Of a stretch of 64,000 nt of DNA, positions 14,479-34,152 are shown one piece after another. Every line of letters begins with the position of its first letter. The first letter of the stretch is position 1. A program made the translations under genes and the position numbers. Location of the stretch: positions 13,223-77,222 of the forward strand of contig JAUVWW010000003.1 in assembly GCA_030603885.1 (NCBI GenBank), read 5' to 3'. The notes under the pieces are model-generated. The model worked only from the letters and a program-made list of their open reading frames with translations. It did not search any database and was not told the origin of the DNA. The DNA comes from a bacterium (lineage in GTDB: Bacteria > Patescibacteriota > JABMPQ01 > JAUVWW01).

Positions 14479-15627
14479 TTAGTAGACGTATCCTTTTATT
14501 CTTCCACTTGAAGCAGGCAAAGTTCTCTCGCTAACTATTCCATATCCTTTATAATTCTGTTCAGTAATAGTTATGGTGCCGTCATTGTTTACAGATTTAA
14601 TTACACCTACATGTCCCACCCAACTTTCATTAGTAACTATAATGGCTCCGGCTCTGGGAGTGTTTCCTATTTCATAACCCTTTGCCCTAGCTCCTGATAG
14701 CCAGGTTCCCGCATTTCCTCCGATATTTTTACCGGTTACAGCATTTACATAGTTTGTACAATAACCACCACCGTAGCTACCTCTTCTATAATAACTAGGT
14801 CTAGAATAATAACTTCTTCTCGAAGCCAGATAAACCGGTCGAGGTTTGGGTTTGAGCTCTGGTTCTGCCTTCCTGCCTCCAGGAATAATTAAAACTTGTC
14901 CTTCTTCTATATCTGAAGCATTAATTAGCTTGTTGTAAGATAAGGCTTGGTCTAGATCTGCTTGATATTTTTGAACAATAGCTTCTAAAGTTTCTCCATT
15001 CTTTACTTGATGGGCAAGGCCGGTAACTGATAGAATTTTTAAAGTATCACCAGGTTTGATAACACTATCTGCATACTTAAGAAGGCTTTCATTGGCCCAA
15101 AAGATAGTGTTCTGAGAGATACCAAACTTAGCTGCTACATGAGAGACAGTTTCTCCTCCTTTTACCTCATAGGTTATGATCTTATCTTGAGGAAATTTTT
15201 GGAGGCCATTGCGGGGAGCGGTAGTTTTAACTAAGACATCCCCTGCTAGATATCTAGAAGACAAAGTGTTATCTTGATATGTTTGGTTCTGACGAGCATC
15301 AAAGGCAGAAACTGGTGAAGCCAAAGCAAATAGTTTGCTTTGTTGAGGCTTGGGAGTTTGAGAAGTATTTTTAACTACTTCTAGCTCCTGCTCGTATGAG
15401 GGTGTGATTAGAGAAATAAAAATACTACTATCTTCTTCAAGGAAATTTCCCCTGGTCTTAGCTTGTAGATTTCCTAACACACAAGCCGAAGTTAACAATA
15501 CCACAAACAGAGGAATGGCAACCTTGGATAGTAGTTTACTTAGATTAAATTTTGATAATTTTTTTGTTTGGGATGTTCGCTTCAAGAGCGAACTAGGAGG
15601 CTTACTCATCCTGGAAGGATTTTTCAA
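14479..15627 (-). CDS. Secreted LysM-repeat plus CHAP-domain peptidoglycan hydrolase
   Basis: ORF 382 aa with a signal/TM segment, two LysM-like segments (GDTLKIL.., GETLEAIVQKY) and a C-terminal CHAP domain (GYCTNYV...WVGHVG). Confidence 0.75.
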   Translation of the reverse strand: MKNPSRMSKPPSSLLKRTSQTKKLSKFNLSKLLSKVAIPLFVVLLTSACVLGNLQAKTRGNFLEEDSSIFISLITPSYEQELEVVKNTSQTPKPQQSKLFALASPVSAFDARQNQTYQDNTLSSRYLAGDVLVKTTAPRNGLQKFPQDKIITYEVKGGETVSHVAAKFGISQNTIFWANESLLKYADSVIKPGDTLKILSVTGLAHQVKNGETLEAIVQKYQADLDQALSYNKLINASDIEEGQVLIIPGGRKAEPELKPKPRPVYLASRRSYYSRPSYYRRGSYGGGYCTNYVNAVTGKNIGGNAGTWLSGARAKGYEIGNTPRAGAIIVTNESWVGHVGVIKSVNNDGTITITEQNYKGYGIVSERTLPASSGRIKGYVY

Positions 15628-16900: not shown

Positions 16901-17869
16901 ATGCCAAATACAAGCAAAGCTAAGATCATTGCCTTGGTTATTATGGCTATTACTGTTTTATTAGTAGCCTTTTTTATTGTCAAAGAGAATTTTGCTTTGT
17001 CTCAAGAAGGAAAGATTATCTCCCGAGCTTCTATTACTGACACAGACGGAGATGGGCTGACAGATGAAGAGGAAACCAAGTATAAAACCAATCCAAATCA
17101 GGCAGATTCAGATGGAGATGGAGTATCTGATTTAGAAGAGATCCAAAAAGGAACAGATCCCAACAAAGCAGATCAAATTCCTGGGGACGTGGATTCCGAC
17201 GGAGATGGCTTGACTAATGACGAAGAAGCCAAATATGGCACAGATCCTTTTAATCCAGACACAGATCAAGATGGCTATTCAGATGGTCAAGAGATAGTTT
17301 CAGGCTATGATCCTTTAACTCCTTGTGAAGGATGTGAAGGAAGAGTGGCAGGAGACTGGTCTAAGACTTTGGAAGGTCTAACAGAGGGCTTGGAGGCTGA
17401 TAAAATTTTAGAAAATGTAGATACATCTCCAGTTGAATTACCAGATATCTCAGATTCAGAGTTAAATATTACAGATGAGACTGGAAAGAAAGCAATGAGA
17501 AAATATTTTGATGAGGTAGAAAAGGTGTTAAAAAAAGATCTGCCCTTTGTAATGGGCAAGGAAAATATTCAGGCTTTTGCATCTGATGCTCTATTAATTC
17601 TCCAGAATAAAGAGAAAATAGATGAAATTACAAAACAACTAGAGACTACCTACCAAGATATAAAAAATATTCCTACTCCAAAGGAATGTAAGACAATTAA
17701 AACAAAAACATTACAAATTTTAAAAGTATCTCCTCAAATATTGAATACAATATACGATTGTCAACAAAGAGGCGATTATTTAAGTTATTTATCTCAACTT
17801 TATAAGATTCAATCCCTTTCTCTCGTCGGAGGGGATTTAGCTAAGGAGATAACCAATATCCAAAAATAA
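16901..17869 (+). CDS. Membrane-anchored protein with thrombospondin-type-3-like Ca-binding repeats ([48 protein letters not shown])
   Basis: ORF 322 aa with an N-terminal TM helix and four D-x-D-x-D-G repeats. Confidence 0.55.
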
Positions 17870-18731: not shown

Positions 18732-21107
18732 ATGCTAAGAAAATCTAAAAATTTCCTTATTTACTTTCTGGTTTTTAGTTTTGTTTTATTATCTCAACCA
18801 TGGTTAGTTAATAAAGCAAGTGCTTATACAAGGCCCACTCTCAATTTAAACATCCCTTCTCAGCCGAAGATTGGTGATGAGATGAAAATTAGGGTCATGG
18901 CCATGTATTTTGACGAAAAAGAGCCTACAAAGATAGGGTATAGTTATTATATCAAGGGCTTTCCAGGTGGGGGCCTTGTAGCTGGGTCTCAAGATAGATT
19001 TGTTAAAGATGGGGTATTGGGCAATCAATATGGCAATTTAAAATATATAGATTATGAACCAACTGCTGGGCATAAGATTAGATATTGGTATAGGACTACT
19101 TTAGATTCTACAGGAACAGAGAAAGAGCCATGGGAGAATAATGATAAGGATATAAATAAAAATAAAATACATGATGATTGGGAAAGAAGATATTTTAGAA
19201 TTGACCCTACAACTGAAGCAGTAAATCCAGATGATGATCCAGATGGGGACAGTTATAATTGGCTGGATAGAATGAAAGCTGCTCATAGGGTATGTATAAC
19301 TTTCAGCATGCCTGAGGCAACCCATTGTGCACTTTACGGATTTCCAGGTGAAGTTTGCTTGCACAAGGCACTATTTGATGCTGGAGTTCCTCAAACAGCA
19401 GATGTTGGTCCTGCAGGAATTATTAATCCTACCTCTCCTAGATATGGAATAGGTACAGACAATAAGTTTACTAACTATGAAGAATATGTTTTTGGAACTA
19501 ATCCTAAATTAGCAGATACAGATGGAGACAGTATATTGGACGAAGCCGATGTAATTGGTATGGGTCAAGATGAGTGTAAGTTTAAGGTTACTCCTGCCTT
19601 AGGTCCGGTAGGAAGAAAGTTTCCTGTGGAGATTAAAACTCTAGGCTATGTTCCAAGAGGTAGTGGTGAATTTCATTGGTGGCGGGGAGGGTCGCCTGGG
19701 TGGGGTGGTATCTTTGATTGGTCTTGTCTTCTTCTACTTTCTAAAACAAATACTGTTGAAATTTCCCCTGGCCCTCCTTTAGATATTATTTTGCAGTCAG
19801 AGCCAGAAGTTCCTACTCCAGCTAATAATGGAACAGATTATCCTGAAGTTAAGATAGAAGCTTCAGTAACAGGAATGGAATATAAACAGAGATTGTATTT
19901 TAAATGGTATATTGGGGCCAAGGTAATAGATGAGGGATACGGAAAGAATATATTTACATTTCCAGTAACTGCTGATCCTTGCAGTGTTGTTCCGGTTACC
20001 TGTGATGTTTCAGAGGAGTTTCCTGGGGGGGTAGTTAGATCCGGATCTGCTAGTTTGGATATGGGAATTGGATATGATATTCCAGAAGATGCCTTATCAG
20101 CTAGCCTGCTTTACAATACTTCCCAAGACCAAGACGAAGATGGCTGTATAGACGGGGATATGAATTGTAATTTCATATTAGATGGTGGCGAAACTTGGAC
20201 TACAACAGATCCATTTTATGATCAGATAAACGATGACCTATTGAATAACGGTCGTAATATAAGACAAAATGATGTAATAACAATACATACCGAATTTTCC
20301 AGTACTAATGGATTATGTACTTTGCCAGATTCAGACGAGCCAAAAGATTTTGTCTATGTCTGGTATCTAGATGGAAAAGAGCAGACAGACCAATCAGGTG
20401 CAGGAGATAAACCTAATCCTCAAATCGAAGGAGGAACTTTTCAAGATTTTAAATTTACTGTTACCAAGCCTCCTGGAAGTAAACATCTAGTAAAATTAAA
20501 ACTAATCAGAATCTCTGATGGTTTTGAATATGGTCAGTTTGGAGAGAAAGTATTTACTGTTCAAACCCCAACAGCTTCTATAGAATCAGGTACAGCTTTT
20601 GGTTGCGATGAAGAGGAGACAGGTTTGTGTAGAGTAATATTAGAGCCTGATGAAACACGAACAGTAGATTTTAAAGCTGTTCTTGAATATTTCCAGCCTA
20701 CCTATGCCGAAACTTTCCATTATACCTGGACTTTTGATGGAGAAGTAGTTAAAGAGAAAGATACTACTGAAGCTGAGGATATTCTCACTTATGAATTTAC
20801 TCATCCAGGAGGAGTAGAAGAGGAGCGTACAGAGAGCCACACTGTAGTAATAACTGTAGATAATTATATAGACTTAGATGAGATAGCAGATGAATCAGCT
20901 ATAAATACTTATGCTGTGGAGCTAGTGCTAAAGCCGGGTGGAGCAGCAGTTGCCCGGGGTCCCCTCCGAACTTTCTTTGCTCAGGCAGGCCAGGCTGTAT
21001 CAAGCCATTTCAAAAATATCTTTAACATTGTTTTCACTATAGGTGTCATTGGCTTTATTGTCTTTGTAGTTATGGCGGCAGGACAGATTAAGAGAAAAAA
21101 AGAATAG
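18732..21107 (+). CDS. Large secreted surface protein with C-terminal TM anchor
   Basis: ORF 791 aa with a signal peptide, an Asp-rich Ca-binding-like motif (DTDGDSILDE) and a C-terminal hydrophobic helix plus KRKKE. Confidence 0.5.
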   Translation: MLRKSKNFLIYFLVFSFVLLSQPWLVNKASAYTRPTLNLNIPSQPKIGDEMKIRVMAMYFDEKEPTKIGYSYYIKGFPGGGLVAGSQDRFVKDGVLGNQYGNLKYIDYEPTAGHKIRYWYRTTLDSTGTEKEPWENNDKDINKNKIHDDWERRYFRIDPTTEAVNPDDDPDGDSYNWLDRMKAAHRVCITFSMPEATHCALYGFPGEVCLHKALFDAGVPQTADVGPAGIINPTSPRYGIGTDNKFTNYEEYVFGTNPKLADTDGDSILDEADVIGMGQDECKFKVTPALGPVGRKFPVEIKTLGYVPRGSGEFHWWRGGSPGWGGIFDWSCLLLLSKTNTVEISPGPPLDIILQSEPEVPTPANNGTDYPEVKIEASVTGMEYKQRLYFKWYIGAKVIDEGYGKNIFTFPVTADPCSVVPVTCDVSEEFPGGVVRSGSASLDMGIGYDIPEDALSASLLYNTSQDQDEDGCIDGDMNCNFILDGGETWTTTDPFYDQINDDLLNNGRNIRQNDVITIHTEFSSTNGLCTLPDSDEPKDFVYVWYLDGKEQTDQSGAGDKPNPQIEGGTFQDFKFTVTKPPGSKHLVKLKLIRISDGFEYGQFGEKVFTVQTPTASIESGTAFGCDEEETGLCRVILEPDETRTVDFKAVLEYFQPTYAETFHYTWTFDGEVVKEKDTTEAEDILTYEFTHPGGVEEERTESHTVVITVDNYIDLDEIADESAINTYAVELVLKPGGAAVARGPLRTFFAQAGQAVSSHFKNIFNIVFTIGVIGFIVFVVMAAGQIKRKKE

Positions 21108-21144: not shown

Positions 21145-23757
21145 ATGATATTTGATTCTATCCAGCAAAAATTGATTCAGGTTTATTTTAAAGGAAAATC
21201 TTTTATTTTTTCCCATAAAAAAGTCGTAATCGCCGGAGTCTTGCTTTTGGCTCTGGTTTTTGTTCTTTTGCCTCATTTTTCACAAGCAGCAAAAGCACCA
21301 ACTTCAATAGAAGTACCAGGGGGAAACTTTCTAGCCTGGGTATTGTATATGGCTAAGATGTTAATATATTGGTTAACATTACTTGCAGCCAGAATTTTAG
21401 CTTGGATGCTAAGAGGAACTCAGGGTTTTCTAGATAGTGAATTAGTTACTGTGGGCTGGTCTGTAGTTAGAGATACAGCCAATATGTTCTTTATTTTAAT
21501 TTTGTTGGTTATTGCCTTTGGCACTATCTTACGTCTGGAAGCCCTTGGCCTTACCTACAAAAGACTTCTTACTCCCATGATCGTTGCTATTTTATTAGTT
21601 AATTTTTCTCGGACCATTTGCACTACCATTGTTAATTTTTGTGATACTTTAATGGAGGGATTTATAGGAGGAATATCAGGCGGAAAAATAGGGACTTTAC
21701 CCGATGCCCTTGTTAGTGGTATGCAGTTAGATAAGATGTGGGAAACAGCTCCCGTAAAGATTAGCTTGTGGAAAATTTTCACTGGATTTCAGACGTTAGA
21801 TGTGATTTTAGCCCAAGCTTTTGATAGTGCTTATGCTAGCGTAGCTTTAATAGCCATGTTAGCAGTCTGTATCTTTTTAATGATCCGAGTTTTGGCTTTG
21901 AGCCTTTTAACCATTGCTGCTCCTCTGGTATTTGTCATGCAAATAATACCAGCTACCAAAACCTATGTAGCTAAGTGGTGGCCTACTTTTATTAAGTATG
22001 CTCTCTATGGACCCATAGCTGCTTTTTGTGTTGCCCTGGCTGGAAAAATGAGTGAGCTTCTTAGAAAAGGTGGGATAGGGCTTTTGGGATGGGAAAAACT
22101 TTCAAATGTGGAACAGCAAGCGCTAGAAAAAGCGGGTTTTGCTTCTGCCATTAGCACTCCCAGAGCCCTTGTAGAAGGCCTTTTTGTCTGTGGAATTCTC
22201 TTTGCCGCGGTTTTGGCTGCCCAACAGCTTGGTCTACACGGCGCAGGAGCCATTGTTAAACTTGCCAGAGGAGGAGCAGGAGTTTTGTTTACGGGAGCCA
22301 AAGCTGGAGGAAGATTTGTTGGTCGAAGAGTATCCATGGGTCTAGGTGCAGGTAAGGAGGGCCTTGTAGGGAAAGTTATGACTCGGGTGGGACTAGGGAA
22401 ATATGCAGATTTTCCCCGTTTTCTCTCTCCTAGGGTGCTAAAAGAAGGTTTAAAAACAAGAATAGAGGAGGCTGAAAAAATGTCCTACGAGGGAGCTTAT
22501 GGTTGGGTCACGGATAGAGTAAACGCTTTATCTACTAAAACTCTTGGTAGTTTAGGAATGGCAAGAATAATGAAAAGAGATTACGAGTCCATAGATTTAG
22601 CAAAGGCTCGAAAAGAGAGAAGAGCTTATTTTCAAGAAGTCAATCCCCATGGTGGCCATCCTTATCTAAGAGACGAATTCTGGAAAGCTGTAGAGGCTAA
22701 AGATATACCGGGATTACAGGAGCTCTTGCTTGAACTAGGCCCACGTCAAAATTGGAATGAGCTTTTAAGGGAATCAGCCCAAGCACCTAAAACCGAAAAA
22801 ATTGGAAGACACATGTTCTCTAAAAAGTATAAGATCTTATTTGGAGAGAAATATTTAGCAAGTGAGAAAATTCAGAAAGAAATGGATCGAACCGGGATGT
22901 TAAAGTTTGATAATGCATCCAGGATAGCCATGCTTGAGAGTCTCTTTGGCAAAGAAAGGGGTATTAAGCTTGGAGCAGAGATATCCGAGGAAGGAAAAAT
23001 TTCAGGAGATCAATCCCGGTCTGAAATGAGAGATTTTCATGCTGGAAAGGAGATCTGGACAGGAACAGTGCAAGTTAATGAGGCTAAAAGAGACGCTGAG
23101 ACGTTATCCGAAGCTGCTTTGAGAGATAAGGCGTTAAAGGCTGGATTTACAAAGACTGATATAGAGGGAGCCTCAAAGCTAAGATTGGCTTACCTAGTTA
23201 AAGCTGTTGAGGTGGGAGCAGACAGAGATGAGATGATCCAGATAGCTCTTGCGCCAGACGAGAATCTCGATGAGATTTATAAGCAGAAAAGAGACACAGA
23301 AAAGTTAAGGGATGTTGTTGATCAAGAGCTAGAGGCTAAGATTATGGATCGGGTTAGAGGACATAGGGCAGCCATAGAACATGCCAAACAGTCTTCCCGA
23401 AAGAAGCTGGATCAATCCAGATTTACCCATGTTATTGTAGGCTATAAGTCAGATGGATCAGAGATGGTCTTTGATATGACTACCAATGCTAGAGATACGG
23501 CAGAGGGTGGAAACTATGTAGCGGGTGATATACATGAAGTAGATAGGTTTACTTCCGCCGTAACTATAGAAAACCAAGTCAAACCTAATGTAAAGATAAT
23601 AAGAAAATATACACTTAAGAAAACAAAAAAGAGAGATCCAGAAGCAGCTAAGCGAAGTGAAGCCTACTATGCACAAGTAGATTATGCTCATGAGCATCCA
23701 GAAGGAGAGCTGAAAAAATTAGCAAGAGCCATACTGGAAGAGGAAAAAGAAAAGTAA
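21145..23757 (+). CDS. VirB6/TrbL-like polytopic membrane protein with long C-terminal hydrophilic domain
   Basis: ORF 870 aa with a signal peptide, then about six TM helices in the first ~400 aa with VirB6-like topology. The C-terminal ~450 aa are charged and helical. Confidence 0.5.
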   Translation: MIFDSIQQKLIQVYFKGKSFIFSHKKVVIAGVLLLALVFVLLPHFSQAAKAPTSIEVPGGNFLAWVLYMAKMLIYWLTLLAARILAWMLRGTQGFLDSELVTVGWSVVRDTANMFFILILLVIAFGTILRLEALGLTYKRLLTPMIVAILLVNFSRTICTTIVNFCDTLMEGFIGGISGGKIGTLPDALVSGMQLDKMWETAPVKISLWKIFTGFQTLDVILAQAFDSAYASVALIAMLAVCIFLMIRVLALSLLTIAAPLVFVMQIIPATKTYVAKWWPTFIKYALYGPIAAFCVALAGKMSELLRKGGIGLLGWEKLSNVEQQALEKAGFASAISTPRALVEGLFVCGILFAAVLAAQQLGLHGAGAIVKLARGGAGVLFTGAKAGGRFVGRRVSMGLGAGKEGLVGKVMTRVGLGKYADFPRFLSPRVLKEGLKTRIEEAEKMSYEGAYGWVTDRVNALSTKTLGSLGMARIMKRDYESIDLAKARKERRAYFQEVNPHGGHPYLRDEFWKAVEAKDIPGLQELLLELGPRQNWNELLRESAQAPKTEKIGRHMFSKKYKILFGEKYLASEKIQKEMDRTGMLKFDNASRIAMLESLFGKERGIKLGAEISEEGKISGDQSRSEMRDFHAGKEIWTGTVQVNEAKRDAETLSEAALRDKALKAGFTKTDIEGASKLRLAYLVKAVEVGADRDEMIQIALAPDENLDEIYKQKRDTEKLRDVVDQELEAKIMDRVRGHRAAIEHAKQSSRKKLDQSRFTHVIVGYKSDGSEMVFDMTTNARDTAEGGNYVAGDIHEVDRFTSAVTIENQVKPNVKIIRKYTLKKTKKRDPEAAKRSEAYYAQVDYAHEHPEGELKKLARAILEEEKEK

Positions 23758-25460: not shown

Positions 25461-25925
25461 ATGCAATATGCTGTTCCTCAATTTGTCGAGATAGAAGACA
25501 AAGTCATCGGCCCTCTCACTGTTCGGCAATTTTTGATTATTTTGGCTGGAGGAGGACTGACTTTTTTAGCCTACAGATTAGCCGATCTTACTCTTTTTAT
25601 TTTGTTAGCTCTGGTGATTATGGGGGGAGCATGTGCTTTTGCTTTTGTCAAAATTAATGGCCAGCCCATACATCAGTATGGCCTGAATGCTTATAAGTTT
25701 CTGACCAAACCAAAGATTTTAATGTGGGCTCATGATCCTAAGCTGGCTCGAGTAAAAGCCACCGAAAAAGTTAAAATAGCTCGACCTAAAATAGAAGAGG
25801 CAGTGCCAGCAAAAGAAATAGTTCCAAGAAGTAAATTAAGAGATTTGTCTGTTATTTTAGATACCTATACGGAGGGAGTGGAGAGAGAAGAAAAGAAAGA
25901 GGGCGAAGAGAGAAAAGAAAAATAG
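25461..25925 (+). CDS. PrgI/VirB3-like small membrane protein
   Basis: ORF 154 aa with an LTVRQFLIIL motif followed by two TM helices. It lies directly upstream of VirB4, as in Gram-positive T4SSs. Confidence 0.5.
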   Translation: MQYAVPQFVEIEDKVIGPLTVRQFLIILAGGGLTFLAYRLADLTLFILLALVIMGGACAFAFVKINGQPIHQYGLNAYKFLTKPKILMWAHDPKLARVKATEKVKIARPKIEEAVPAKEIVPRSKLRDLSVILDTYTEGVEREEKKEGEERKEK

Positions 25926-25952: not shown

Positions 25953-26771
25953 ATGGAGCAAGAAGTTAAAAAACCAAAAGGACCTTTTGAAGGGATCATT
26001 GACAAGATCCTTAGTTTTTTACCTACCCCGAAAAAACCTCCTGGGGCCAAGGGTCCTGAAAAGGAAGCTAAGCCAGTTGAGGCGGCAGAGACCTTGAAAT
26101 CTTCTCGAGCTAAAGCAAGAGTAGCTGCCTCAGTTCAAAGATATCTTCCTTTTAAGGAAATAAGAGATGGCTGTGTGGTGCTTAAAAATAACGCTCTTAG
26201 AGCCATTCTAATGGTCTCCTCTATTAATTTTGCCTTGATGTCTGAAGAAGAGCAAAAAGCTAAGCTTTATGCCTACCAAGAATTTTTAAATGCTCTAGAA
26301 TTTCCAGTTCAGTTTGTCATTCAATCCAAAATGCTAAATATTTCAGGATATTTGGAAAAGGTGGAGGAGATAGCCAGGGTTCAGGAGAATGAACTTTTGC
26401 GTATTCAAACTTCAGAATATAAAGAATTTGTAAAAAGCCTGGTTGAGCTAGCTAATATTACTTCTAATCATTATTATATAGTGGTTCCTTATTCGGGTCC
26501 CGGAGTAGAAGTTAAAAAAGGAATAGCCGATAGAGTAAAAAGTATGATTCAACCAGCCCAAAAGATTGCCGAAGAAAAGCTTAGTTTTGAAAAATCAAAA
26601 GAAGCCCTGGATTTAAGGGTATCTCAGGTGATATCTGGTCTATCTGGCATGGGTCTTAGATGTGCTCAACTTTCCACCCAAGAAATAGTTGAGCTTTTGT
26701 ATACAGTTTATAATCCAGATACAGCCAAGAATCAGATTTTGGCTGATTTGGAAAGATTAGAAGTAGCATAA
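25953..26771 (+). CDS. VirB4/TrbE/PrgJ-family ATPase, N-terminal segment, separated from the remainder by one in-frame TAA
   Basis: LPFKEIRDGCVVLKNNALRAILMVSSINFALMSEEEQ matches the conserved N-terminal region of Gram-positive VirB4-like proteins. It is in the same frame as 26799-28664. Confidence 0.6.
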   Translation: MEQEVKKPKGPFEGIIDKILSFLPTPKKPPGAKGPEKEAKPVEAAETLKSSRAKARVAASVQRYLPFKEIRDGCVVLKNNALRAILMVSSINFALMSEEEQKAKLYAYQEFLNALEFPVQFVIQSKMLNISGYLEKVEEIARVQENELLRIQTSEYKEFVKSLVELANITSNHYYIVVPYSGPGVEVKKGIADRVKSMIQPAQKIAEEKLSFEKSKEALDLRVSQVISGLSGMGLRCAQLSTQEIVELLYTVYNPDTAKNQILADLERLEVA

Positions 26772-26798: not shown

Positions 26799-28664
26799 TT
26801 GTTCAAAACCATGGTCGAAAAACTCGAAACAAAACAAGTTCCCATAGGTAAAAAAGATCTTGAAAGTCTCACTCTAGAAGAGAGAGAGGCTATTCTTAAA
26901 GCCGAAGAAATCTATCGTAAGGGCCTGGTTTCTGTTCAGGATATCATTGCTCCTTCTGCTTTAAAAATAAATCCTGATCATATTATTATTGGTACCAAGT
27001 ATGCTCGTACTATATACCTAGTTACTTATCCTCGGTATCTAATGACTGGTTGGTTTGCTCCCATAATTAACTTAAATGTGGCTTTGGACATTGCCCTGTT
27101 TATTGAGCCTATGTCTTCAGAGACAGTGTTGAAGACTCTTCGTTCTAAAGCAGCTCAAGTTCAGGCAGGCATAGCTGGCAATATAGAAAAGGGAATGGTC
27201 AGAGATCCTATTTTGGATGCAGCTTTAAAAGATGTAGAGACTTTGAGAGATAAGCTAACTGCCGGAACAGAGAGATTTTTTCATTTCGGACTTTACATCA
27301 CTATCTATGCTAAAAATACAGAAGAATTAGAAAAGACCACCACTGAAATAGAAACTATGTTTGGGCATAAGTTAATTATGTCCCGGAGAGCCGTATTTCA
27401 AGGGGAGCAGGGTTTTAATTCCACTTTACCTTTTGGAATGGATGATCTTGGTATAACCCTGCCCATGAATACAGGACCTTTATCTACTTCATTCCCGTTT
27501 GTCTCAAGTGAACTTACTTCAGATAAAGGAATTCTTTATGGCATAAATCGGCATAACAACTCCCTAATTTTATTTGATCGATTTTCTCTTCCCAATGCAA
27601 ACTCAGTTGTTTTTGCTACTTCAGGAGCTGGAAAGAGTTATGCTGTGAAACTTGAAGTTTTAAGATCTATGATGTTTGGTACTGATGTCATTATTGTCGA
27701 CCCAGAAAATGAATATCAGCATTTATCTGAAGCTGTGGGTGGAACTTTCTTGAAAATTTCTTTAGGAGCCAATTATATTATCAATCCTTTTGATCTTCCT
27801 AAACCTGTGGCTGGAGAGTCTACTGAAGATATTATCAGATCTGCTGTTATTAGCTTAAAGGGATTAATGAAGGTTATTTTAGGCCGAATGACTAAAGAAG
27901 AAGAGGCTTTGGTAGACAAAGCTCTACTTGAGACTTATGCTGCCAGAGACATTACTCCTGAATCAGATTTAGCTAAAATTACTCCTCCAACTATGGAAGA
28001 TTTTGAGAGCATTCTCTCTGGTATGGAAGGAGCAGAAGATCTTGCTCTAAGAATTCAGAAATATACCAAAGGAACCTTTGCAGGGCTTTTTAATAAACCT
28101 ACCAATGTAGAGCTGAAACAGCAGTTGGTAGTCTTTTCTATTCGAGACCTTGAGGATGAACTTCGTCCAGTAGCTATGTACATTATCTTGAATTATATCT
28201 GGAATATAGTAAGATCAGAATTGAAGAAAAGAATTTTAGTTGTTGATGAAGCTTGGTGGATGATGCAATATGAAGATTCGGCTCGGTTCCTATTTGGATT
28301 AGTTAAAAGAGCAAGAAAATATTATCTGGGAGTGACAGTTATTTCTCAAGATGTAAATGACTTCTTGACTTCTGATATGGGCAAAGCAGTAGTGACTAAC
28401 TCTGCCATGCAAATATTACTTAGACAGTCTCCAGCAGCTATTGATCTTTTAAGAAAAACATTTTATCTGACTGAGGAAGAAAAATATCTACTTTTGGAAT
28501 CCAATGTAGGGGAGGGAATATTCTTTGCCGGAGCCAAGCATGTGGCCATAAAGATAGTTGCCTCTTATTCTGAAGATCAGATTATTACCACTGACCCAAG
28601 ACAGCTTTTAGAGATAGAAAAGGCAAAGGAGGAATTTGCCGAGGCAGAGAAACAAGCAGGTTAA
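26799..28664 (+). CDS. VirB4-like T4SS ATPase (Walker A ATSGAGKS, Walker B ILVVDEAWWMM)
   Basis: ORF 621 aa (TTG start in the track; ATG at 26811). It has the conserved IIGTKYARTIYLVTYPRY region and P-loop NTPase motifs. Confidence 0.85.
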   Translation: MFKTMVEKLETKQVPIGKKDLESLTLEEREAILKAEEIYRKGLVSVQDIIAPSALKINPDHIIIGTKYARTIYLVTYPRYLMTGWFAPIINLNVALDIALFIEPMSSETVLKTLRSKAAQVQAGIAGNIEKGMVRDPILDAALKDVETLRDKLTAGTERFFHFGLYITIYAKNTEELEKTTTEIETMFGHKLIMSRRAVFQGEQGFNSTLPFGMDDLGITLPMNTGPLSTSFPFVSSELTSDKGILYGINRHNNSLILFDRFSLPNANSVVFATSGAGKSYAVKLEVLRSMMFGTDVIIVDPENEYQHLSEAVGGTFLKISLGANYIINPFDLPKPVAGESTEDIIRSAVISLKGLMKVILGRMTKEEEALVDKALLETYAARDITPESDLAKITPPTMEDFESILSGMEGAEDLALRIQKYTKGTFAGLFNKPTNVELKQQLVVFSIRDLEDELRPVAMYIILNYIWNIVRSELKKRILVVDEAWWMMQYEDSARFLFGLVKRARKYYLGVTVISQDVNDFLTSDMGKAVVTNSAMQILLRQSPAAIDLLRKTFYLTEEEKYLLLESNVGEGIFFAGAKHVAIKIVASYSEDQIITTDPRQLLEIEKAKEEFAEAEKQAG

Positions 28665-28673
28665 ACCTATAAA

Positions 28674-29315
28674 ATGTTCAAAAAAAATCTTTCTAAAAAA
28701 TTTATTCTAGTCATTTTTGTTGGATTGATCGTAGTCTTAGTAACGGCTGGTTTGGGTTGTAAAGAACCAGCCGAAGAAGAAGCTGCTTCTCCAGCTCCAG
28801 TAGCCAAACCAGTGGAAAGACCAGCTGAAGAGATTGAAGAAGAGGCTAAACCAGTAGCCAAGCCCAAAGAAGAGGTTGAACCTATAGAAGAAGTAACACC
28901 CGAGGAAGAAAAGCCTCAAGAGCTTCCCCTGACAGCTGAAGATGAGCAAGCCCTAGTCCTAAAACAAGCAGAAAAAATAGCCCAGATTTATGGGACCTAT
29001 GCTACTACGGATGACCCCCCTTACAAAAATATAAGAGATCTAAAAGATTTTGGAACTGATGCATTTAATTCCTGGCTAGATACCATCATTAAAGATGTTG
29101 CTCCCACTGGTCCGTTTCATGGATGGGCCACTACGGCTATATCTTCTGCTATATTAGAAAGTTCTTTTGATTCTATGGAAATATTAATTACTTGTAAAAA
29201 AGAGGAGTTTTTAGAGACTCAGAGAGCTCCAAAAGTAAGTTATAAAATGTTGAAGATAAGTTTTAAGAAAGTTGGGGAAGATTGGAAAGTGGATAGAGTG
29301 AAATGGATAGAATAG
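28674..29315 (+). CDS. Putative lipoprotein (lipobox LGC) with acidic and Pro-rich linker
   Basis: ORF 213 aa with signal peptide plus Cys lipobox. Confidence 0.45.
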   Translation: MFKKNLSKKFILVIFVGLIVVLVTAGLGCKEPAEEEAASPAPVAKPVERPAEEIEEEAKPVAKPKEEVEPIEEVTPEEEKPQELPLTAEDEQALVLKQAEKIAQIYGTYATTDDPPYKNIRDLKDFGTDAFNSWLDTIIKDVAPTGPFHGWATTAISSAILESSFDSMEILITCKKEEFLETQRAPKVSYKMLKISFKKVGEDWKVDRVKWIE

Positions 29316-29328
29316 TGAATAGTGATTC

Positions 29329-29874
29329 TTGATTCAAAATTCAATACCCATGGAAATATCTCAACAAGAAATACAATGGAAACGTCAATTGGCTGCCATC
29401 AGGCGAGCCAAGCAAGGTATTGGAGTGGCTAAAGATATTGGAAAATCAAGATATTTAAAAGATGGAGGAAATCCAGGTCTAGAAGATCCTCCCCAGGAGG
29501 AGGAGATTTTGCCAGAGGAGGAACAACCAAGTGCAGTAGCTAGACTTAGAGAGGCTGCCGAAGAAGAAGCAAAAAGACTAGCTAAGGAAGCAATTAAGAA
29601 AGCAGCCAAGAAAGTAGTTAAGAAGGCAGCTGTAAGCGTTTTTAAGGCCTTAGCAAAAAATCCTTACTTTTGGGTAGCTGTAGGAATAATAGTGGGTATA
29701 ATTCTTTTAGTCGTGCTGGTAGTGGTAGTATATAATATTAGCGGGGGTGGAGTAGAGATTACTCCAGAGGAAAGAGCATATTATGAGGAAGTGGTAACTG
29801 AAGAAAGAATGGAAAGTTTTCTAGATAAACCTGCCCCAGTGCCTGTACCTGGAGGAATACCAATCCAAAGGTAG
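29329..29874 (+). CDS. Hypothetical single-TM protein with Lys/Ala-rich helix
   Basis: ORF 181 aa. Confidence 0.4.
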   Translation: MIQNSIPMEISQQEIQWKRQLAAIRRAKQGIGVAKDIGKSRYLKDGGNPGLEDPPQEEEILPEEEQPSAVARLREAAEEEAKRLAKEAIKKAAKKVVKKAAVSVFKALAKNPYFWVAVGIIVGIILLVVLVVVVYNISGGGVEITPEERAYYEEVVTEERMESFLDKPAPVPVPGGIPIQR

Positions 29875-29939: not shown

Positions 29940-30581
29940 ATGTTCAATAAATTAAAATCCATTTTTCTTTTTCTTGTCTGCCTAGCTTTATTTGTTTTAC
30001 CTCTATTTACTCTTGCCCAAGAAGGATTTTTTGGTGAGGCAGAAACAGCTACTGGAATGATTAGAAATATTTATTGGTTTGGAGTAGTCATAGTTGGCTT
30101 TGCGGCTGTGGTAGCCATTGTCATTGCTGGCATAATGTATATGCAGTCCTATGGAGATCCGCAGAAAATAACCCAGGCCAAACAGCTTTTAGGAGGTGCT
30201 CTTATTGGTATGGTCCTACTTCTTTTTTCCTACACCATTCTCCGAACCATAAATCCTGCCTTGGTAAGACTAAGGGAGCCGATGTTGGAGGTGGAGTTGG
30301 AAAAGCCTGAATGTCTTCCAAACGGGACTTCGTGTAATGTACATGCTGAATGTTGTAGTGGAAGATGTGATCCGCAAACAAGACTGTGTATAACTCCTGG
30401 GGGTGGAACCGCTGGAAAATGTAATGAAGAAGACCCTACAAAAAAACATGAGTGTTGTAAAAATAATGATACTGGCGAATTTTGGGAAGCATGGCTAGGG
30501 GTTAATCAATACTGTCACCATGTTTGTCCTGAAACCCCCGGGGGTTGGGCTGGCGTCGGTTCTTCTGCTTGTGGATTTTAA
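29940..30581 (+). CDS. VirB2/TrbC-topology pilin-like protein (signal peptide plus two TM helices) fused to a C-terminal Cys-rich domain (14 Cys)
   Basis: ORF 213 aa. It is a paralog of 31941-32951, sharing the FFGEAE motif after the signal peptide, a two-TM hairpin and P.L....P.LEVEL. Confidence 0.5.
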   Translation: MFNKLKSIFLFLVCLALFVLPLFTLAQEGFFGEAETATGMIRNIYWFGVVIVGFAAVVAIVIAGIMYMQSYGDPQKITQAKQLLGGALIGMVLLLFSYTILRTINPALVRLREPMLEVELEKPECLPNGTSCNVHAECCSGRCDPQTRLCITPGGGTAGKCNEEDPTKKHECCKNNDTGEFWEAWLGVNQYCHHVCPETPGGWAGVGSSACGF

Positions 30582-30655
30582 ATTACAGATTGAATTAATA
30601 AAAAGGGGCAGTCTCCCTGAGAACAATAGAATAATTTAACAATTAAACAATTTCC

Positions 30656-31831
30656 ATGTCTAGAAAACTTATTATCATTGGAATTGGAGCAGCTATTTTG
30701 ATTCTTATTGTTGTTGTAGTTGTCTCTACTATAATAAGAAGAAGAGCTGTTGCTCCTACCCCTGCTCCTGAACCAACTCCACCTCTGACCGAAGAAGAAA
30801 AAAGACTGATTCCTGCTGGAGAAAGGGTAATATCATCTGAAGCAGAGGAGATTGCTGGCCGGCTTAAAATAGAAAAGACTTTAGATGTTCAAACTCAGGC
30901 TCCAGCTCAGTCTGCAGAAGGAGATAATATTGTCTATTTCGATCAAAAAGCAGGCGAGTTTTATATTGCCTCAATGGCTGGAGCAAATATCGAGCCTCTA
31001 ACCCAGGCTGGATTTAGAAATGTTGAAGATATAGTTTGGTCTCCCAAAAAAGACAAAGCTATAATAGTCTTTCCTGAAGAAAAGCATACTTATGATCTAG
31101 TAGAAAAATCATCAACCAAACTAGATGAGCACATGACTGCTGCCACTTTTTCTCCAGATGGATCAAAGATTCTTTATAAATTCGATTCAGATACTCTTCG
31201 TGCTTTATCAATGGCTGACCCCGACGGTTCTAATTGGAAAAGGATTAAAGATGTGGGGCCGGGGAATTTAGTTTTACATTGGTACAGGCCAGACAGAATT
31301 GCCTATCATTCTCCTGCCTCAGGATATTCTCGGACCACTATTTATACTTGTAATTTAGAAGGAAAAGACATAAAAGTTATTGCTTCGGATAACTATGGCT
31401 CAGGAGCCAAATGGTCTCCTGATGGCTTAAAAATGATCTTTACCACCTCACCAAAAGAATCTTCTAGCCTAGCTTTGAAGCTGGCTTGGGGTGATGGAAG
31501 TCATGTTAGAGATCTTGGCATGAATAGCCTGGTTGAAAAATGCACTTTCTCTCAAGATTCAAAATCTTTATATTGCGCTCTTCCTGAACCTGTCTCAACT
31601 GTATTTGTTTTACCTGATGATTGGTATGACAAGAAAGTAATCACCTCTGATTCTTTTTGGAAAATAGATACCGAGACTGACGAGCGAACAAAAATAGCCT
31701 CAACTGACGACATTGAGACACTATATGGTAAGACTTTTGACGCTTCGAATTTATTTGTTTCACAAGATGCTTCAAGACTTTTCTTTACTGCTAGAAATGA
31801 TGGTAAGTTGTATAGTTTGATACTGCCTTAG
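30656..31831 (+). CDS. Membrane-anchored PD40/TolB-like beta-propeller protein
   Basis: ORF 391 aa with an N-terminal TM helix and repeated WSP.../SPDG... blades. It is a paralog of 32977-34152, with shared C-terminus DGKLYSL. Confidence 0.5.
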   Translation: MSRKLIIIGIGAAILILIVVVVVSTIIRRRAVAPTPAPEPTPPLTEEEKRLIPAGERVISSEAEEIAGRLKIEKTLDVQTQAPAQSAEGDNIVYFDQKAGEFYIASMAGANIEPLTQAGFRNVEDIVWSPKKDKAIIVFPEEKHTYDLVEKSSTKLDEHMTAATFSPDGSKILYKFDSDTLRALSMADPDGSNWKRIKDVGPGNLVLHWYRPDRIAYHSPASGYSRTTIYTCNLEGKDIKVIASDNYGSGAKWSPDGLKMIFTTSPKESSSLALKLAWGDGSHVRDLGMNSLVEKCTFSQDSKSLYCALPEPVSTVFVLPDDWYDKKVITSDSFWKIDTETDERTKIASTDDIETLYGKTFDASNLFVSQDASRLFFTARNDGKLYSLILP

Positions 31832-31940
31832 CTATAAAGACACAAATTTTCCACGAATATTAACTCGAATAAATATAGTGCAGACCTTCGGTCTGCTTTT
31901 GTTAGACATAAGGCATGTTTTTTGATAGAATACAATTAGT

Positions 31941-32951
31941 ATGCGTCTCAAAATAATGACAATCTCAATTTCGATTATTCTAGCAAGTGTTTGTGCTACA
32001 AGCATAGCTCATGCTCAGGCAGTTCCCTTTTTCGGAGAGGCAGAAAATATCTGTGAGCTAATAAAAAACATTGTTTATTTTGGAGTAGGTTTAGCTGGTG
32101 TTGCTGCTATGCTGGTGATCATGATTGGAGGGATTATTTACATGGTTTCTTTTGGTTCGGAGGAAAGAAAGAAAACTGGCATGGACCTTATGGGAGGGGC
32201 AGTCAAAGGCTTACTTTTAGCTCTTTTTTCCTGGACCATTTTTTATATTATTAGTCCCTATCTTTTAAGATGTAAAGTGCCTGTGTTGGAAGTAGAGCTA
32301 CCAGAATGGTATGGAGAAAGAGAAAGAGGGATAGCAAAACGCCTTCCTTGTCAAGGTAAGGAAACCTTTGACCGGGCTGAATGTAGCACAAAATGTGGCG
32401 TAGAGCCAGGCGAAGCAAGGCCAGGCATGAATTGTATCCCAGAAAAGAATTCTTGTGGTCAAGAAGGAGATAAATACTGTTGCCTAGATTTAAAAATCGA
32501 TCATATCACTGTTCATTGGACAGCTGGACATCCTAGTCATATCACTAATTTCTGTACAAATGGGTATCTTGGATATCACTATGTTGTCGATTCACAGGGA
32601 ACTGTTCATCAAATGGCAAAGGATTGGGAAATCCCCCCCTGGCATACTAAAGGTAGAAATACTCGGGGCATTGGTATTACTGCCGCAGGTATGGCTGGAG
32701 CCGGCACAACTTGCTATGTGGAGAGTGGTGATATCGGTGGATGTCCTAATTGTCCAAACTGTCTTACCCAGGCTCAGATAAATGCAATGAAAGCCAAAAT
32801 AGCAGAACTAGCAAATAAATATAATATTCCTTCTACTACTGCCGGTATAATCACACACGGAGAAGCTGCTATAGAAGATGGATACTATCCAAATAGATGG
32901 GAATACACTGTAAAAAATAAGGTTAACTATGGACCCGAATTTCGACAATAA
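31941..32951 (+). CDS. VirB2-topology pilin-like protein fused to a Cys-rich region and a C-terminal Amidase_2/PGRP-type N-acetylmuramoyl-L-alanine amidase domain
   Basis: ORF 336 aa. HITVHWTAGH...YHYVVDSQGTVHQ...WHTKGRNTRGIGI matches the Amidase_2 core. The N-terminus is paralogous to 29940-30581. Confidence 0.6.
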   Translation: MRLKIMTISISIILASVCATSIAHAQAVPFFGEAENICELIKNIVYFGVGLAGVAAMLVIMIGGIIYMVSFGSEERKKTGMDLMGGAVKGLLLALFSWTIFYIISPYLLRCKVPVLEVELPEWYGERERGIAKRLPCQGKETFDRAECSTKCGVEPGEARPGMNCIPEKNSCGQEGDKYCCLDLKIDHITVHWTAGHPSHITNFCTNGYLGYHYVVDSQGTVHQMAKDWEIPPWHTKGRNTRGIGITAAGMAGAGTTCYVESGDIGGCPNCPNCLTQAQINAMKAKIAELANKYNIPSTTAGIITHGEAAIEDGYYPNRWEYTVKNKVNYGPEFRQ

Positions 32952-32976
32952 AAAACTTAAATGTTAAGTTTGATTT

Positions 32977-34152
32977 ATGAAATTAAGTAAGAGAGCAATT
33001 ATTTTCGGCTGTGCACTGGTAATTTTAATAATTGCAGCCATTATTATTTTTGTTAGGAGAAGAGCAGTTCCTAAAGTTCCAGAAGAAGAGATTCACGAAC
33101 GAATAACTTTTTTAGAAGCTAATCCAGACATTAAATTAGCTTTTGAAGAATCACAGACCCCTGTCGTTCCAGAACCTTTAAAGATAACTGAAGTTATTGA
33201 TGATAGGGTTTCTTTTCCTAGCTTGTCTTTAGAAGAGAGGGGTATTTTTTACTTTTCTCTAACGGGTGGAAGACTTTATAGGACACAATTGGATACAAAA
33301 GAGAAAAGAGAATTATTTCCACTAGCACGATTCGAGAATATGGACAGTGTTATTTGGTCGCCTTTGTTTAATCGAGCTATCATTTCTTATCGCTCCTTTC
33401 CCAAAGAATATCTATTAGATGATTTAGAATATTTAGAGATGCCTGTTACCAAAGAAGTACTCGATTTTTCTAGTCAATCCTCGGTCAGATTAAATAAGAA
33501 TATAGAAGATGTCATGTGGACTCCTAGTGGCGATAGAATTGTCTATCATTATTTAGATGAAGAACAAGATCTAAGTGTAATAAGTATTGCTGATCATGAT
33601 GGTGGTAATTGGAGGAATTTAAAGGAATTAACTATTACACCTTACTCAAAAGTTTTAAGACTTGTTAAATGTTATAGTAATAGGGTTCTTTTTGTTTCTT
33701 TTTCTGATGATGGTTCAGAATTTACCTTATATAGTTTGGATTTATTTAGTGGAGAGCAGACCAGGATAATAGATAAAATCCGGTGGGCAAAGCCATCCCC
33801 AGATGGAAGAAGTATTTTAGTAGAGGCTATGGAAAATGGTAATTTGATTCATTTTGTGATGGATTTAGACAGGAGAACGAGAGAAATTTTAGATATAGAT
33901 ACCTTGATAAATAAATGTGTTTGGAGTAATGATAACACAACTATTTACTATGCCTTAGGAGATAATGTTAATTATTTAGTTTCTGATAGTTTTTGGAAGC
34001 TAAACACTGTTACAGGTCAAAAAACCCAACTTACTAATTTAGATCTAGACTCTCCTATTGATGCCAGTGATCTATTTCTATCTCAAGATGAAAAGACTCT
34101 TTTCTTCAAAAACAATATTGATGGCAAGCTTTATTCCTTGGCTCTTTACTAG
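32977..34152 (+). CDS. Membrane-anchored PD40/TolB-like beta-propeller protein (paralog 2)
   Basis: ORF 391 aa with the same architecture and length as 30656-31831. Confidence 0.5.
   Translation: MKLSKRAIIFGCALVILIIAAIIIFVRRRAVPKVPEEEIHERITFLEANPDIKLAFEESQTPVVPEPLKITEVIDDRVSFPSLSLEERGIFYFSLTGGRLYRTQLDTKEKRELFPLARFENMDSVIWSPLFNRAIISYRSFPKEYLLDDLEYLEMPVTKEVLDFSSQSSVRLNKNIEDVMWTPSGDRIVYHYLDEEQDLSVISIADHDGGNWRNLKELTITPYSKVLRLVKCYSNRVLFVSFSDDGSEFTLYSLDLFSGEQTRIIDKIRWAKPSPDGRSILVEAMENGNLIHFVMDLDRRTREILDIDTLINKCVWSNDNTTIYYALGDNVNYLVSDSFWKLNTVTGQKTQLTNLDLDSPIDASDLFLSQDEKTLFFKNNIDGKLYSLALY

Follow-up and report, generated by a model that had tools for sequence, protein, structure and literature searches.

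Patescibacteria carry a Gram-positive-like type IV secretion system (T4SS) (Quinonero-Coronel et al. 2025, PMC12102498), and VirB2-like pilins have been reported near virB4 in 1,135 assemblies, with VirB1 not recognizable in most genomes that hold VirB2 homologues and VirB8 rarely found (PMC12102498). In Southlakia epibionticum, epibiotic growth requires the T4SS and its pilins, and neither a relaxase nor a coupling protein was recognized (Wang et al. 2023, PMC10633639). Few machines of Patescibacteria have been shown to be essential for epibiotic life; the T4SS is one of them, and its role was described as “completely unknown” in a 2024 perspective (PMC11665869). Here, we analyze a stretch of 64,000 nucleotides (nt) from a member of this phylum (Patescibacteriota, JABMPQ01, JAUVWW01; assembly GCA_030603885.1, contig JAUVWW010000003.1, positions 13,223 to 77,222 of the forward strand), hereafter the window, in which four consecutive genes encode two pilin-like proteins, A1 (29940-30581, 213 amino acids [aa]) and A2 (31941-32951, 336 aa, or 331 aa when called with another start), and two propeller proteins of 391 aa each, B1 (30656-31831) and B2 (32977-34152). 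An earlier note on this DNA, made from the sequence alone, had presented these open reading frames (ORFs) as a duplicated pilin-propeller module in a T4SS setting; all four are present on the plus strand, and they do lie inside a T4SS locus with VirB6-like, PrgI, TrsD-like, and VirB4 genes. Their pilin modules carry C-terminal domains, which we call heads, and near relatives have exchanged these heads at a fixed junction. We consider the surface or pilus display of exchangeable modules that target the cell wall to be the most likely function of this arrangement.

The closest described systems are the VirB2-like pilin arrays of Patescibacteria (PMC10633639, PMC12102498), which belong to the same Pfam family and occupy the same place beside a relaxase-less VirB4/PrgI/TrsD/VirB6-like core. 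Since VirB2-like pilins near virB4 have already been reported (PMC12102498), a pilin array as such is not new. However, the published pilins have been treated as plain, the six essential ones of S. epibionticum having about 380 to 420 nt of coding sequence where listed (PMC10633639), whereas at the present locus the pilin module is joined to an exchangeable head of 90 to 215 aa, including a peptidoglycan hydrolase, and the intervening nonpilin gene encodes a membrane-anchored propeller. Neither “propeller” nor “amidase” occurs in the text of the two papers (PMC10633639, PMC12102498), which was searched for both words. Likewise, the literature covered by our search, which was incomplete, contained no account of pilins fused to hydrolases, of exchanged heads, or of a propeller partner; InterPro-style architecture tables may list such fusions.

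A second likeness is to the VirB1-type hydrolases of Gram-positive T4SSs (PrgK of pCF10, TraG of pIP501, TcpG, and CD419/TrsG), which are also membrane anchored, extracytoplasmic, and encoded within the T4SS locus, and which often combine several domains, namely, SLT, CHAP/NlpC, and LytM/M23 (PMC12102498). In contrast to these proteins, the anchor is here a VirB2-family pilin hairpin instead of a simple transmembrane (TM) helix, and the type of enzyme changes between near relatives. Judged from Pfam domains, the likeness does not extend to Amidase_2, which is not among the domains given for VirB1 homologues in PMC12102498.

Pilin modules and their C-terminal heads

A1 and A2 are paralogs (39% identity, E value of 8e-26) that can be aligned over residues 1 to 120 only and that have the motifs FFGEAE and P.LEVEL in common. 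Both reach the gathering cutoff of the T4SS_pilin family (PF18895; 29.0 bits for A1 and 29.7 bits for A2, cutoff of 26.6), and both remain under that of TrbC/VirB2 (PF04956; 21.1 and 20.8 bits, cutoff of 27.9). Hydropathy places a signal-like segment at residues 1 to 31 of A1 and hydrophobic stretches at residues 40 to 72 and 82 to 105, with similar positions in A2, and the AlphaFold model of A2 shows a helical hairpin (helices 37 to 69 and 74 to 104) with a predicted local distance difference test score (pLDDT) of 71 to 90. The best Foldseek match of this model in the PDB is the conjugation pilus of Aeropyrum pernix (8dfu; probability of 0.95, TM-score of 0.64 on the target), which at an E value of 0.29 is suggestive only; the pilin profile retrieved nothing from PDB sequences beyond spurious membrane-protein matches. 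Profile match and hairpin topology agree with the VirB2-type assignment proposed in the earlier note, and A1 and A2 are predicted to be pilin-domain proteins of the VirB2/TrbC superfamily, with a module at 29940-30299 in A1 (signal peptide, FFGEAE, helical hairpin, and NPxL...LEVEL junction) and at 31941-32307 in A2. Neither is a small mature pilin made of the hairpin only: A1 holds about 90 and A2 about 215 additional C-terminal residues. As a separate observation, A1 and A2 have subthreshold NCBIfam matches (2.8e-5 and 2.7e-3) to the “Mbov_0395 family pilin-like conjugal transfer protein” of Mycoplasma integrative and conjugative elements, which hints at a related pilin-like protein in the MPF_FATA systems of Mollicutes; MPF_FATA systems are stated to be without VirB2 homologues (PMC12102498).

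The signal peptide and the two membrane helices would place the C terminus of A1 and A2 outside the cell. In solved conjugative pili, the loop between the helices lines the lumen and the termini face outward; therefore, a C-terminal head would decorate the surface of the filament, or that of the cell if the protein is retained in the membrane. TrbC-type propilins are processed at their C terminus, and by analogy the heads might be cleaved off at the conserved LEVEL junction.

Past this junction, each A protein continues into the Cys-rich extracytoplasmic domain anticipated in the earlier note, with 12 cysteines in each case; its count of 14 cysteines for the first copy has to be revised, as A1 has 13, of which 12 follow residue 120, and A2 has 15. 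The A1 head (30300-30581) consists of this 12-Cys domain, whose first six cysteines show a knottin-like spacing (C-x6-C-x5-CC-x3-C-x6-C); Pfam matches to conotoxins were subthreshold (0.003). In A2, the junction is followed by a Cys-rich stalk (32308-32489) with eight cysteines that ends in KYCC and is modeled with a pLDDT of 65 to 80 (residues 140 to 185). Reading of the sequences reveals a Cys-rich stretch between pilin and enzyme, ending in (K/G)(Y/W/F)CC, also in the related proteins P0002, P0004, P0064, P0078, and P0088 (here and below, P numbers denote related proteins and L numbers related loci or contigs that were compared with the window).

The stalk leads into the A2 head (32490-32867), an Amidase_2 domain of the N-acetylmuramoyl-L-alanine amidase/peptidoglycan recognition protein (PGRP)/T7-lysozyme fold. 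The amidase fusion proposed for the second copy is well supported, since residues 184 to 309 match PF01510 at 2.1e-15 (57.7 bits, cutoff of 26) over profile positions 3 to 122 of 131, and among PDB sequences PGRPs and T7 lysozyme were weakly matched. Three residues, namely, the His in HWTAG, the Tyr in GYHY, and the His in THGE, align to what we take to be His17, Tyr46, and His122 of T7 lysozyme. The closest relative of the head that we found is P0005, a 194-aa Amidase_2 protein (35% identity) encoded directly after a holin-like gene (weak Phage_holin_4_1 match) in phage-like contigs, so the A2 head is endolysin-like. It shares its domain with the phage Amidase_2 endolysins of the T7 lysozyme/PGRP type and differs from them in that a pilin module and a Cys-rich stalk precede it in the same protein; a Cys-rich insertion in the amidase (C258, C268, C271, and C274) is presumably also absent from T7 lysozyme. 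Like the other recognizable heads described below, it is predicted to act on peptidoglycan.

Exchange of heads at a fixed junction

Contigs of relatives were recovered through homologs of B1, B2, and A2, and breakpoints were determined by blastn. The search with A2 returned four nonself relatives only. The pilin modules of P0002 and P0003 are 84% and 76% identical to that of A2 over the first 120 residues and are followed by Peptidase_M23, not Amidase_2, and P0004 has an NlpC/P60- or Amidase_5-like domain after its pilin module (weak match, 9e-4). Altogether, the A2 pilin module (about 120 aa) is 76 to 87% identical among relatives, and the heads at this position are Amidase_2 in the window, M23 in L001 and P0003, and NlpC/P60-like in L091, L092, and L093. 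The A1 pilin module is similarly conserved (82 to 85% identical) and is joined to five unrelated heads of 91, 131, 196, 204, and 218 aa, those of 131 to 218 aa being found in L088, L090, P0041, and P0044.

The borders of the exchanged segments are sharp. Homology to the DNA of L088, L090, and L091 breaks off at 30292-30298, at about codon 120 of A1, and resumes at about 30624, just before B1. It then spans B1, the space between B1 and A2, and the pilin module of A2, and stops exactly at 32307 (codon 122 of A2, just past LEVEL) in four independent contigs (L001, L091, L092, and L093), to resume at 34019-34141, within the last 30 to 40 codons of B2, and to go on into radA. The variable cassette that lies between these conserved flanks (32308-34018) thus comprises the stalk and head of A2 and most of B2, and the propellers encoded at the B2 position in the window, L001, and L093/L092 are only 28 to 34% identical to one another. 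In the comparison with L093, radA is 93% identical at the amino acid level and 92% at the nucleotide level, with a synonymous divergence (dS) of 0.29, whereas B2 has a dS of 1.2 and a nonsynonymous divergence (dN) of 0.65; therefore, the A2 head and B2 were replaced as a block from a divergent source, not altered by fast local evolution. The conserved parts are under purifying selection (dN/dS of 0.09 to 0.22; 0.15 to 0.22 for the A1 pilin module). The heads are hence exchangeable cassettes that are swapped at the fixed LEVEL junction between near relatives, the A2 head together with most of B2 and the A1 head alone, with B1 staying conserved. The divergent diversification that the earlier note had suspected takes this form.

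Fusions of this kind could in principle arise from misassembly or miscalled read-through, with the pairs juxtaposed by chance, and one contig gives reason for suspicion. In the A2 ortholog L090:2142-3044, which is cut by the contig end, the pilin module changes after about codon 75, inside the hairpin, into an alpha/beta-hydrolase-like sequence with a GKSIGG nucleophile-elbow motif, and its DNA is homologous to the window only up to 32164, short of 32307; either the contig is chimeric or the replacement is of another kind. Such an artifact is nevertheless a negligible prospect for the locus as a whole, given that continuous ORFs of the same architecture occur in many independent NCBI, JGI, ENA, and Logan assemblies, that 140 of the 149 best pilin relatives exceed 200 aa (median of 341 aa), and that both the junction motif and the Cys-rich stalk recur in relatives.

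The exchange pattern also resembles that of polymorphic toxins (CdiA-CT/CdiI, Rhs, and LXG), in which a conserved N-terminal trafficking part is followed by a sharp demarcation motif and by unrelated C-terminal enzymes in close relatives, and in which replacement of the C-terminal domain extends to the downstream gene, as in our second pair; in the first pair, the head alone is swapped. The pilin module would then be a delivery domain, the C-terminal enzyme a toxin against competitors, possibly released by cleavage at LEVEL, and B2 a surface-tethered immunity protein or inhibitor. The sharp junction between a conserved N terminus and a variable C terminus, the replacement of the A2 head and B2 as a unit (three enzyme types with three dissimilar propellers), and the allele replacement indicated by the dS contrast all fit this idea, as does the established processing of TrbC-type propilins at their C terminus; in Xanthomonadales, peptidoglycan hydrolases that are delivered by a T4SS and paired with immunity proteins are known. 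We nonetheless regard a toxin-immunity module as improbable, since the propeller family is also found beside plain pilins that have no head, B1 does not covary with the A1 heads, and 391 aa with a TM anchor are atypical of an immunity protein. Moreover, no orphan head-immunity cassettes are visible downstream, where radA follows directly, and no VirD4 coupling protein was seen among the ORFs of the T4SS cluster that we examined. The carrier, too, is a T4SS pilin domain, and the partner is a large membrane-anchored propeller, neither of which corresponds to the known polymorphic toxins.

Membrane-anchored propellers

B1 and B2 are 29% identical over nearly their full length (E value of 6e-41), each has a single N-terminal anchor by hydropathy, and both contain the C-terminal DGKLYSL motif. 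B1 matches PD40 above the cutoff (27.8 bits, 2.3e-6; cutoff of 20.9) and B2 stays under it (15.8 bits), so B2 is assigned as a propeller because of its identity to B1. The AlphaFold model of B1, based on 17 homologs (mean pLDDT of 85.9, predicted TM-score of 0.78), consists of a TM helix (residues 3 to 29), a disordered Pro-rich linker (about 28 to 58), and a propeller of about 28 strands (72 to 391), for which Foldseek retrieves the propellers of TolB, tricorn, DPP-IV, and oligogalacturonate lyase at 1e-10 to 1e-13. These results are in agreement with the membrane-anchored PD40/TolB-like proteins proposed from the first inspection, and the two B proteins are best described as predicted single-pass, membrane-anchored propellers of the PD40 type that regularly accompany such pilin genes. 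They share PD40 repeats and an extracytoplasmic propeller fold with TolB, but they lack its N-terminal domain and have instead a TM helix and a Pro-rich linker as anchor, in a T4SS locus of a monoderm-type organism. Consistently, their scores against the TolB model TIGR02800 are far under the cutoff of 343 (41.8 bits for B1 and 25.8 for B2), with the propeller part alone being aligned.

The two propellers have different histories. B1 has orthologs with 73 to 94% identity and evolves under purifying selection (dN/dS of 0.12 to 0.14), whereas B2 has no close ortholog, its closest relative among 5.8 billion clustered proteins being 33% identical.

Recurrence of the module in Patescibacteria

An exhaustive profile search with the pilin module yielded 25,868 representative proteins at an E value of ≤1e-3, of which 2,326 remained at ≤1e-10. 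Among the 136 closest relatives scanned with Pfam, 131 match T4SS_pilin and 28 match TrbC/VirB2 (best match, 7e-26). Their heads include SLT (15 proteins), C39-type peptidase (7), NlpC/P60 (4), M15/VanY (1 or 2), M23 (1), and a GDSL lipase (1), and none of the 136 contains Amidase_2, which makes the amidase fusion of the window a singleton for now. Some relatives (P0038, P0039, P0046, P0048, and others) have three to seven pilin-profile stretches in one protein of 480 to 620 aa, some ending in SLT; in P0038, four pilin stretches and SLT form a single polypeptide with tandem pilin modules.

To place the propellers, 80 VirB4-anchored loci of species-representative genomes were scanned over 10 kb around virB4 with custom profile hidden Markov models for pilin and propeller. 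Roughly 20 of these loci have a propeller, in most cases no more than about 1 kb away from a pilin ORF, so that the pairing of pilin and propeller that the earlier note expected to find conserved does recur in related genomes. Eight loci have, immediately before the propeller, a pilin whose head of 200 to 330 aa matches no Pfam family, and the pilin just downstream carries SLT (L024 and L079), a 3D domain (L015), or VanY (L023). The A1-B1-A2 part of the window therefore represents a recurring triad of pilin-X, propeller, and pilin-hydrolase. Only in the window and its near relatives L001 and L093/L092 did we see another propeller behind the hydrolase pilin, which suggests that B2 is a lineage-specific added paralog and that the triad is the conserved unit. 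The surroundings of the propeller vary as well: in L089, a B1-type propeller is directly followed by a glycosyltransferase gene and radA; in L005/L006, propellers follow plain pilins of 123 and 153 aa; and in L003/L004, a large surface protein precedes the propeller instead of a pilin.

These observations modify the tandem two-gene duplication put forward in the earlier note. The paralogy of A1 with A2 and of B1 with B2 holds, but a triad with an added B2 is suggested in place of a simple two-by-two duplication. The DNA shared by the two pairs amounts to short patches, such as the FFGEAE codons 2001 nt apart, with no sign of recent duplication, and synonymous sites are saturated (proportion of synonymous differences of 0.775 for B1/B2); the duplication is therefore old. 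For the same reason, the dN/dS ratio between the paralogs, which had been proposed as a check, was calculated and is undefined, and the ortholog comparisons given above were used in its place.

The retention of the propeller even beside plain pilins bears on another explanation, in which the system is directed at the cell itself. The hydrolase head would then substitute for VirB1 and cut the producer’s own peptidoglycan for passage of the T4SS channel or pilus, the pilin module would hold the enzyme at the assembly site, and the propellers would be structural, their bitopic layout of TM segment, Pro-rich linker, and beta-domain being reminiscent of VirB10 and VirB8. In support of this, the hydrolase-bearing pilin is located inside the T4SS locus, B1 is under purifying selection, and Gram-positive T4SSs need a membrane-anchored multidomain hydrolase (PrgK; TraG of pIP501), with VirB1 being unrecognized in most Patescibacteria that have VirB2 homologues and VirB8 being rare (PMC12102498). 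However, an enzyme directed at a presumably constant own wall would not be expected to alternate between amidase, M23, and NlpC/P60-like types where radA is 93% identical; the nearest relative of the amidase is a phage endolysin-type gene adjoining a holin-like gene; and the A1 heads, which hold no recognizable enzyme, are exchanged equally often. On balance, a VirB1 substitute seems unlikely to us, if less so than a toxin-immunity module.

Proposed function

At about even chances, we propose instead that exchangeable heads that bind and cut the wall are displayed by the T4SS at the zone of contact with a host. The pilin module would be used by the T4SS to insert, and possibly polymerize, the A proteins at the cell surface, whereby the heads would come to face the host cell. 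There, they would bind and cut peptidoglycan, opening a path for T4SS-dependent exchange. The propeller would dock or restrain the head-bearing pilin, with B2 matched to its particular enzyme, and recombinational exchange of heads would retune the system to different wall chemistries. The sequences themselves show the domain identities, the T4SS context, the recurring module, and the exchange of cassettes, from which display at the surface or on a pilus, the wall that is targeted, and the part played by the propeller are inferred.

Several points weigh against this proposal. A globular head of 90 to 215 aa on every subunit may fit poorly into VirB2-type helical packing. The evidence sides with neither the host wall nor the producer’s own wall as the target. 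In the model of A2, the amidase is predicted unreliably, with a pLDDT of about 30, as the alignment is too shallow, and only two Zn-ligand His and the catalytic Tyr were aligned to what we take to be the T7 lysozyme sequence, without a third ligand. Since B1 is conserved where the A1 head changes, the propeller does not always covary with the upstream head. Finally, both pilin and propeller are missing within 10 kb of virB4 in about 55 of the 80 related loci, and the T4SS cluster of S. epibionticum, the sole experimentally studied system, has six plain pilins and no propeller (PMC10633639).

More broadly, it is tempting to speculate that the T4SS of many environmental lineages of Patescibacteria builds a pilus or surface array with enzymatic heads (amidase, M23, NlpC/P60, SLT, and M15) exchangeable by recombination. 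Such an array would be a modular “drill” for the host wall in which a matched propeller restrains the enzyme on the producer, and in which head and propeller together set the host range. We hold this generalization to be possible but doubtful. In any case, wall-cutting enzymes fused to a T4SS pilin module and swapped at a fixed junction provide a concrete, testable link between the T4SS and the breaching of cell walls, and bear on the open question of what the essential Patescibacteria T4SS does. Enzyme-bearing pilins may also explain the “missing VirB1” of most Patescibacteria genomes, the TM-anchored propeller is a previously unremarked conserved partner of T4SS pilins, and the locus offers a naturally occurring system in which modules are displayed at the surface on a VirB2 scaffold.

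Genomic neighborhood

Judged by gene content, the four genes are the distal part of a Patescibacteria-type T4SS locus, that is, a Gram-positive-like one related to MPF_FATA, whose other genes lie upstream on the same strand. These include a polytopic VirB6/TrbL-like membrane protein of the T4SS core (21145-23757, 870 aa), which has a weak TrbL match (E value of 0.0046) and whose counterpart at the same position in L003 matches PF04610 TrbL. Farther downstream lie genes for a small PrgI/VirB3-like membrane protein (25461-25925; PF12666 PrgI at 3.3e-12, 47.2 bits, cutoff of 27) and a TrsD/TraC-like ORF that resembles the N-terminal part of VirB4 (25953-26771; partial NCBIfam matches to VirB4_plasma at 3e-14 and TrsD at 4.6e-6). 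A separate ORF of this kind (PF26593 TraC-like) is also found 5' of virB4 in L002, L003, L006, and L007. The VirB4-family ATPase itself (26799-28664) matches P-loop_TraG (1.5e-26), AAA_10, and CagE_TrbE_VirB (1.4e-6) and is 59 to 69% identical to VirB4 from 80 Patescibacteria metagenome-assembled genomes (MAGs), the nearest sequences belonging to MAGs of the Falkow-, Magasanik-, Uhr-, Nomura-, Buchanan-, and Komeilibacteria types. Many species-representative MAGs (L011, L017, L019, L021 to L023, and others), with a VirB4 60 to 65% identical to that of the window, are titled “uncultured Gammaproteobacteria bacterium”; the loci examined among them bear Patescibacteria-type pilin and propeller genes, and the titles look mislabeled.

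Between virB4 and A1 lie two further genes. The first (28674-29315) encodes a conserved membrane-anchored protein of about 200 aa that is always located 3' of virB4; it is 71% identical to L088:1189-1800, and a gene of this size is present at this position in most of the 80 loci. As the genes at this position in most loci gave weak matches to the propeller profile, they were considered as true propellers and rejected, with E values mostly between 1e-3 and 1 (lowest, 2e-5 in L022) and ORFs of about 200 aa that are too short for a full propeller; the matches probably stem from the segment of the profile that covers the TM helix and the linker. The second (29329-29874) encodes a 181-aa protein with one hydrophobic segment at about residues 113 to 136, which matched no Pfam family and is partly kept in L088 (81% identity over 42 aa).

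In related T4SS loci, an Rce1-like CAAX/CPBP intramembrane protease (PF02517, about 1e-7) is encoded two genes after virB4 (L002:5060-5740 and L003:6265-6936) and is a candidate for the pilin-processing enzyme of those loci; no counterpart was recognized among the window ORFs between virB4 and A1. Between B1 and A2, consensus scans matched a terminator-like hairpin (31880-31896) followed by a T-run and a promoter-like site (31903-31931, TAGACA-17-TAGAAT with TG before it), both on the plus strand, which suggests that A2-B2 can be transcribed separately from B1. The 3' end of the module is marked by radA, directly after B2. The GC content is about 37%, and an Rfam scan of the window found five tRNAs, none within the A1-B2 region.

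Other surface-related genes lie upstream of the T4SS core. On the minus strand, 14479-15627 encodes a protein of 382 aa that, as read from the translation, has two LysM-like repeats and a CHAP/NlpC-like C-terminal end (GGYCTNYV and GHVGVI) and would represent another wall hydrolase close to the T4SS locus, separate from A2. Just upstream of the core, 16901-17869 and 18732-21107 encode surface proteins with Asp-rich repeats of the thrombospondin type 3-like kind. The 791-aa repeat protein has a TM segment at its C-terminal end and shows weak similarity (E value of 0.004) to an 882-aa protein encoded before the L003 propeller. In L002 and L005, two Wzy_C (O-antigen-ligase-like) genes and glycosyltransferase genes follow the propeller on the opposite strand, and the T4SS-pilin-propeller locus lies within about 8 to 10 kb of dnaA/dnaN, consistent with the origin-proximal location described in PMC12102498.

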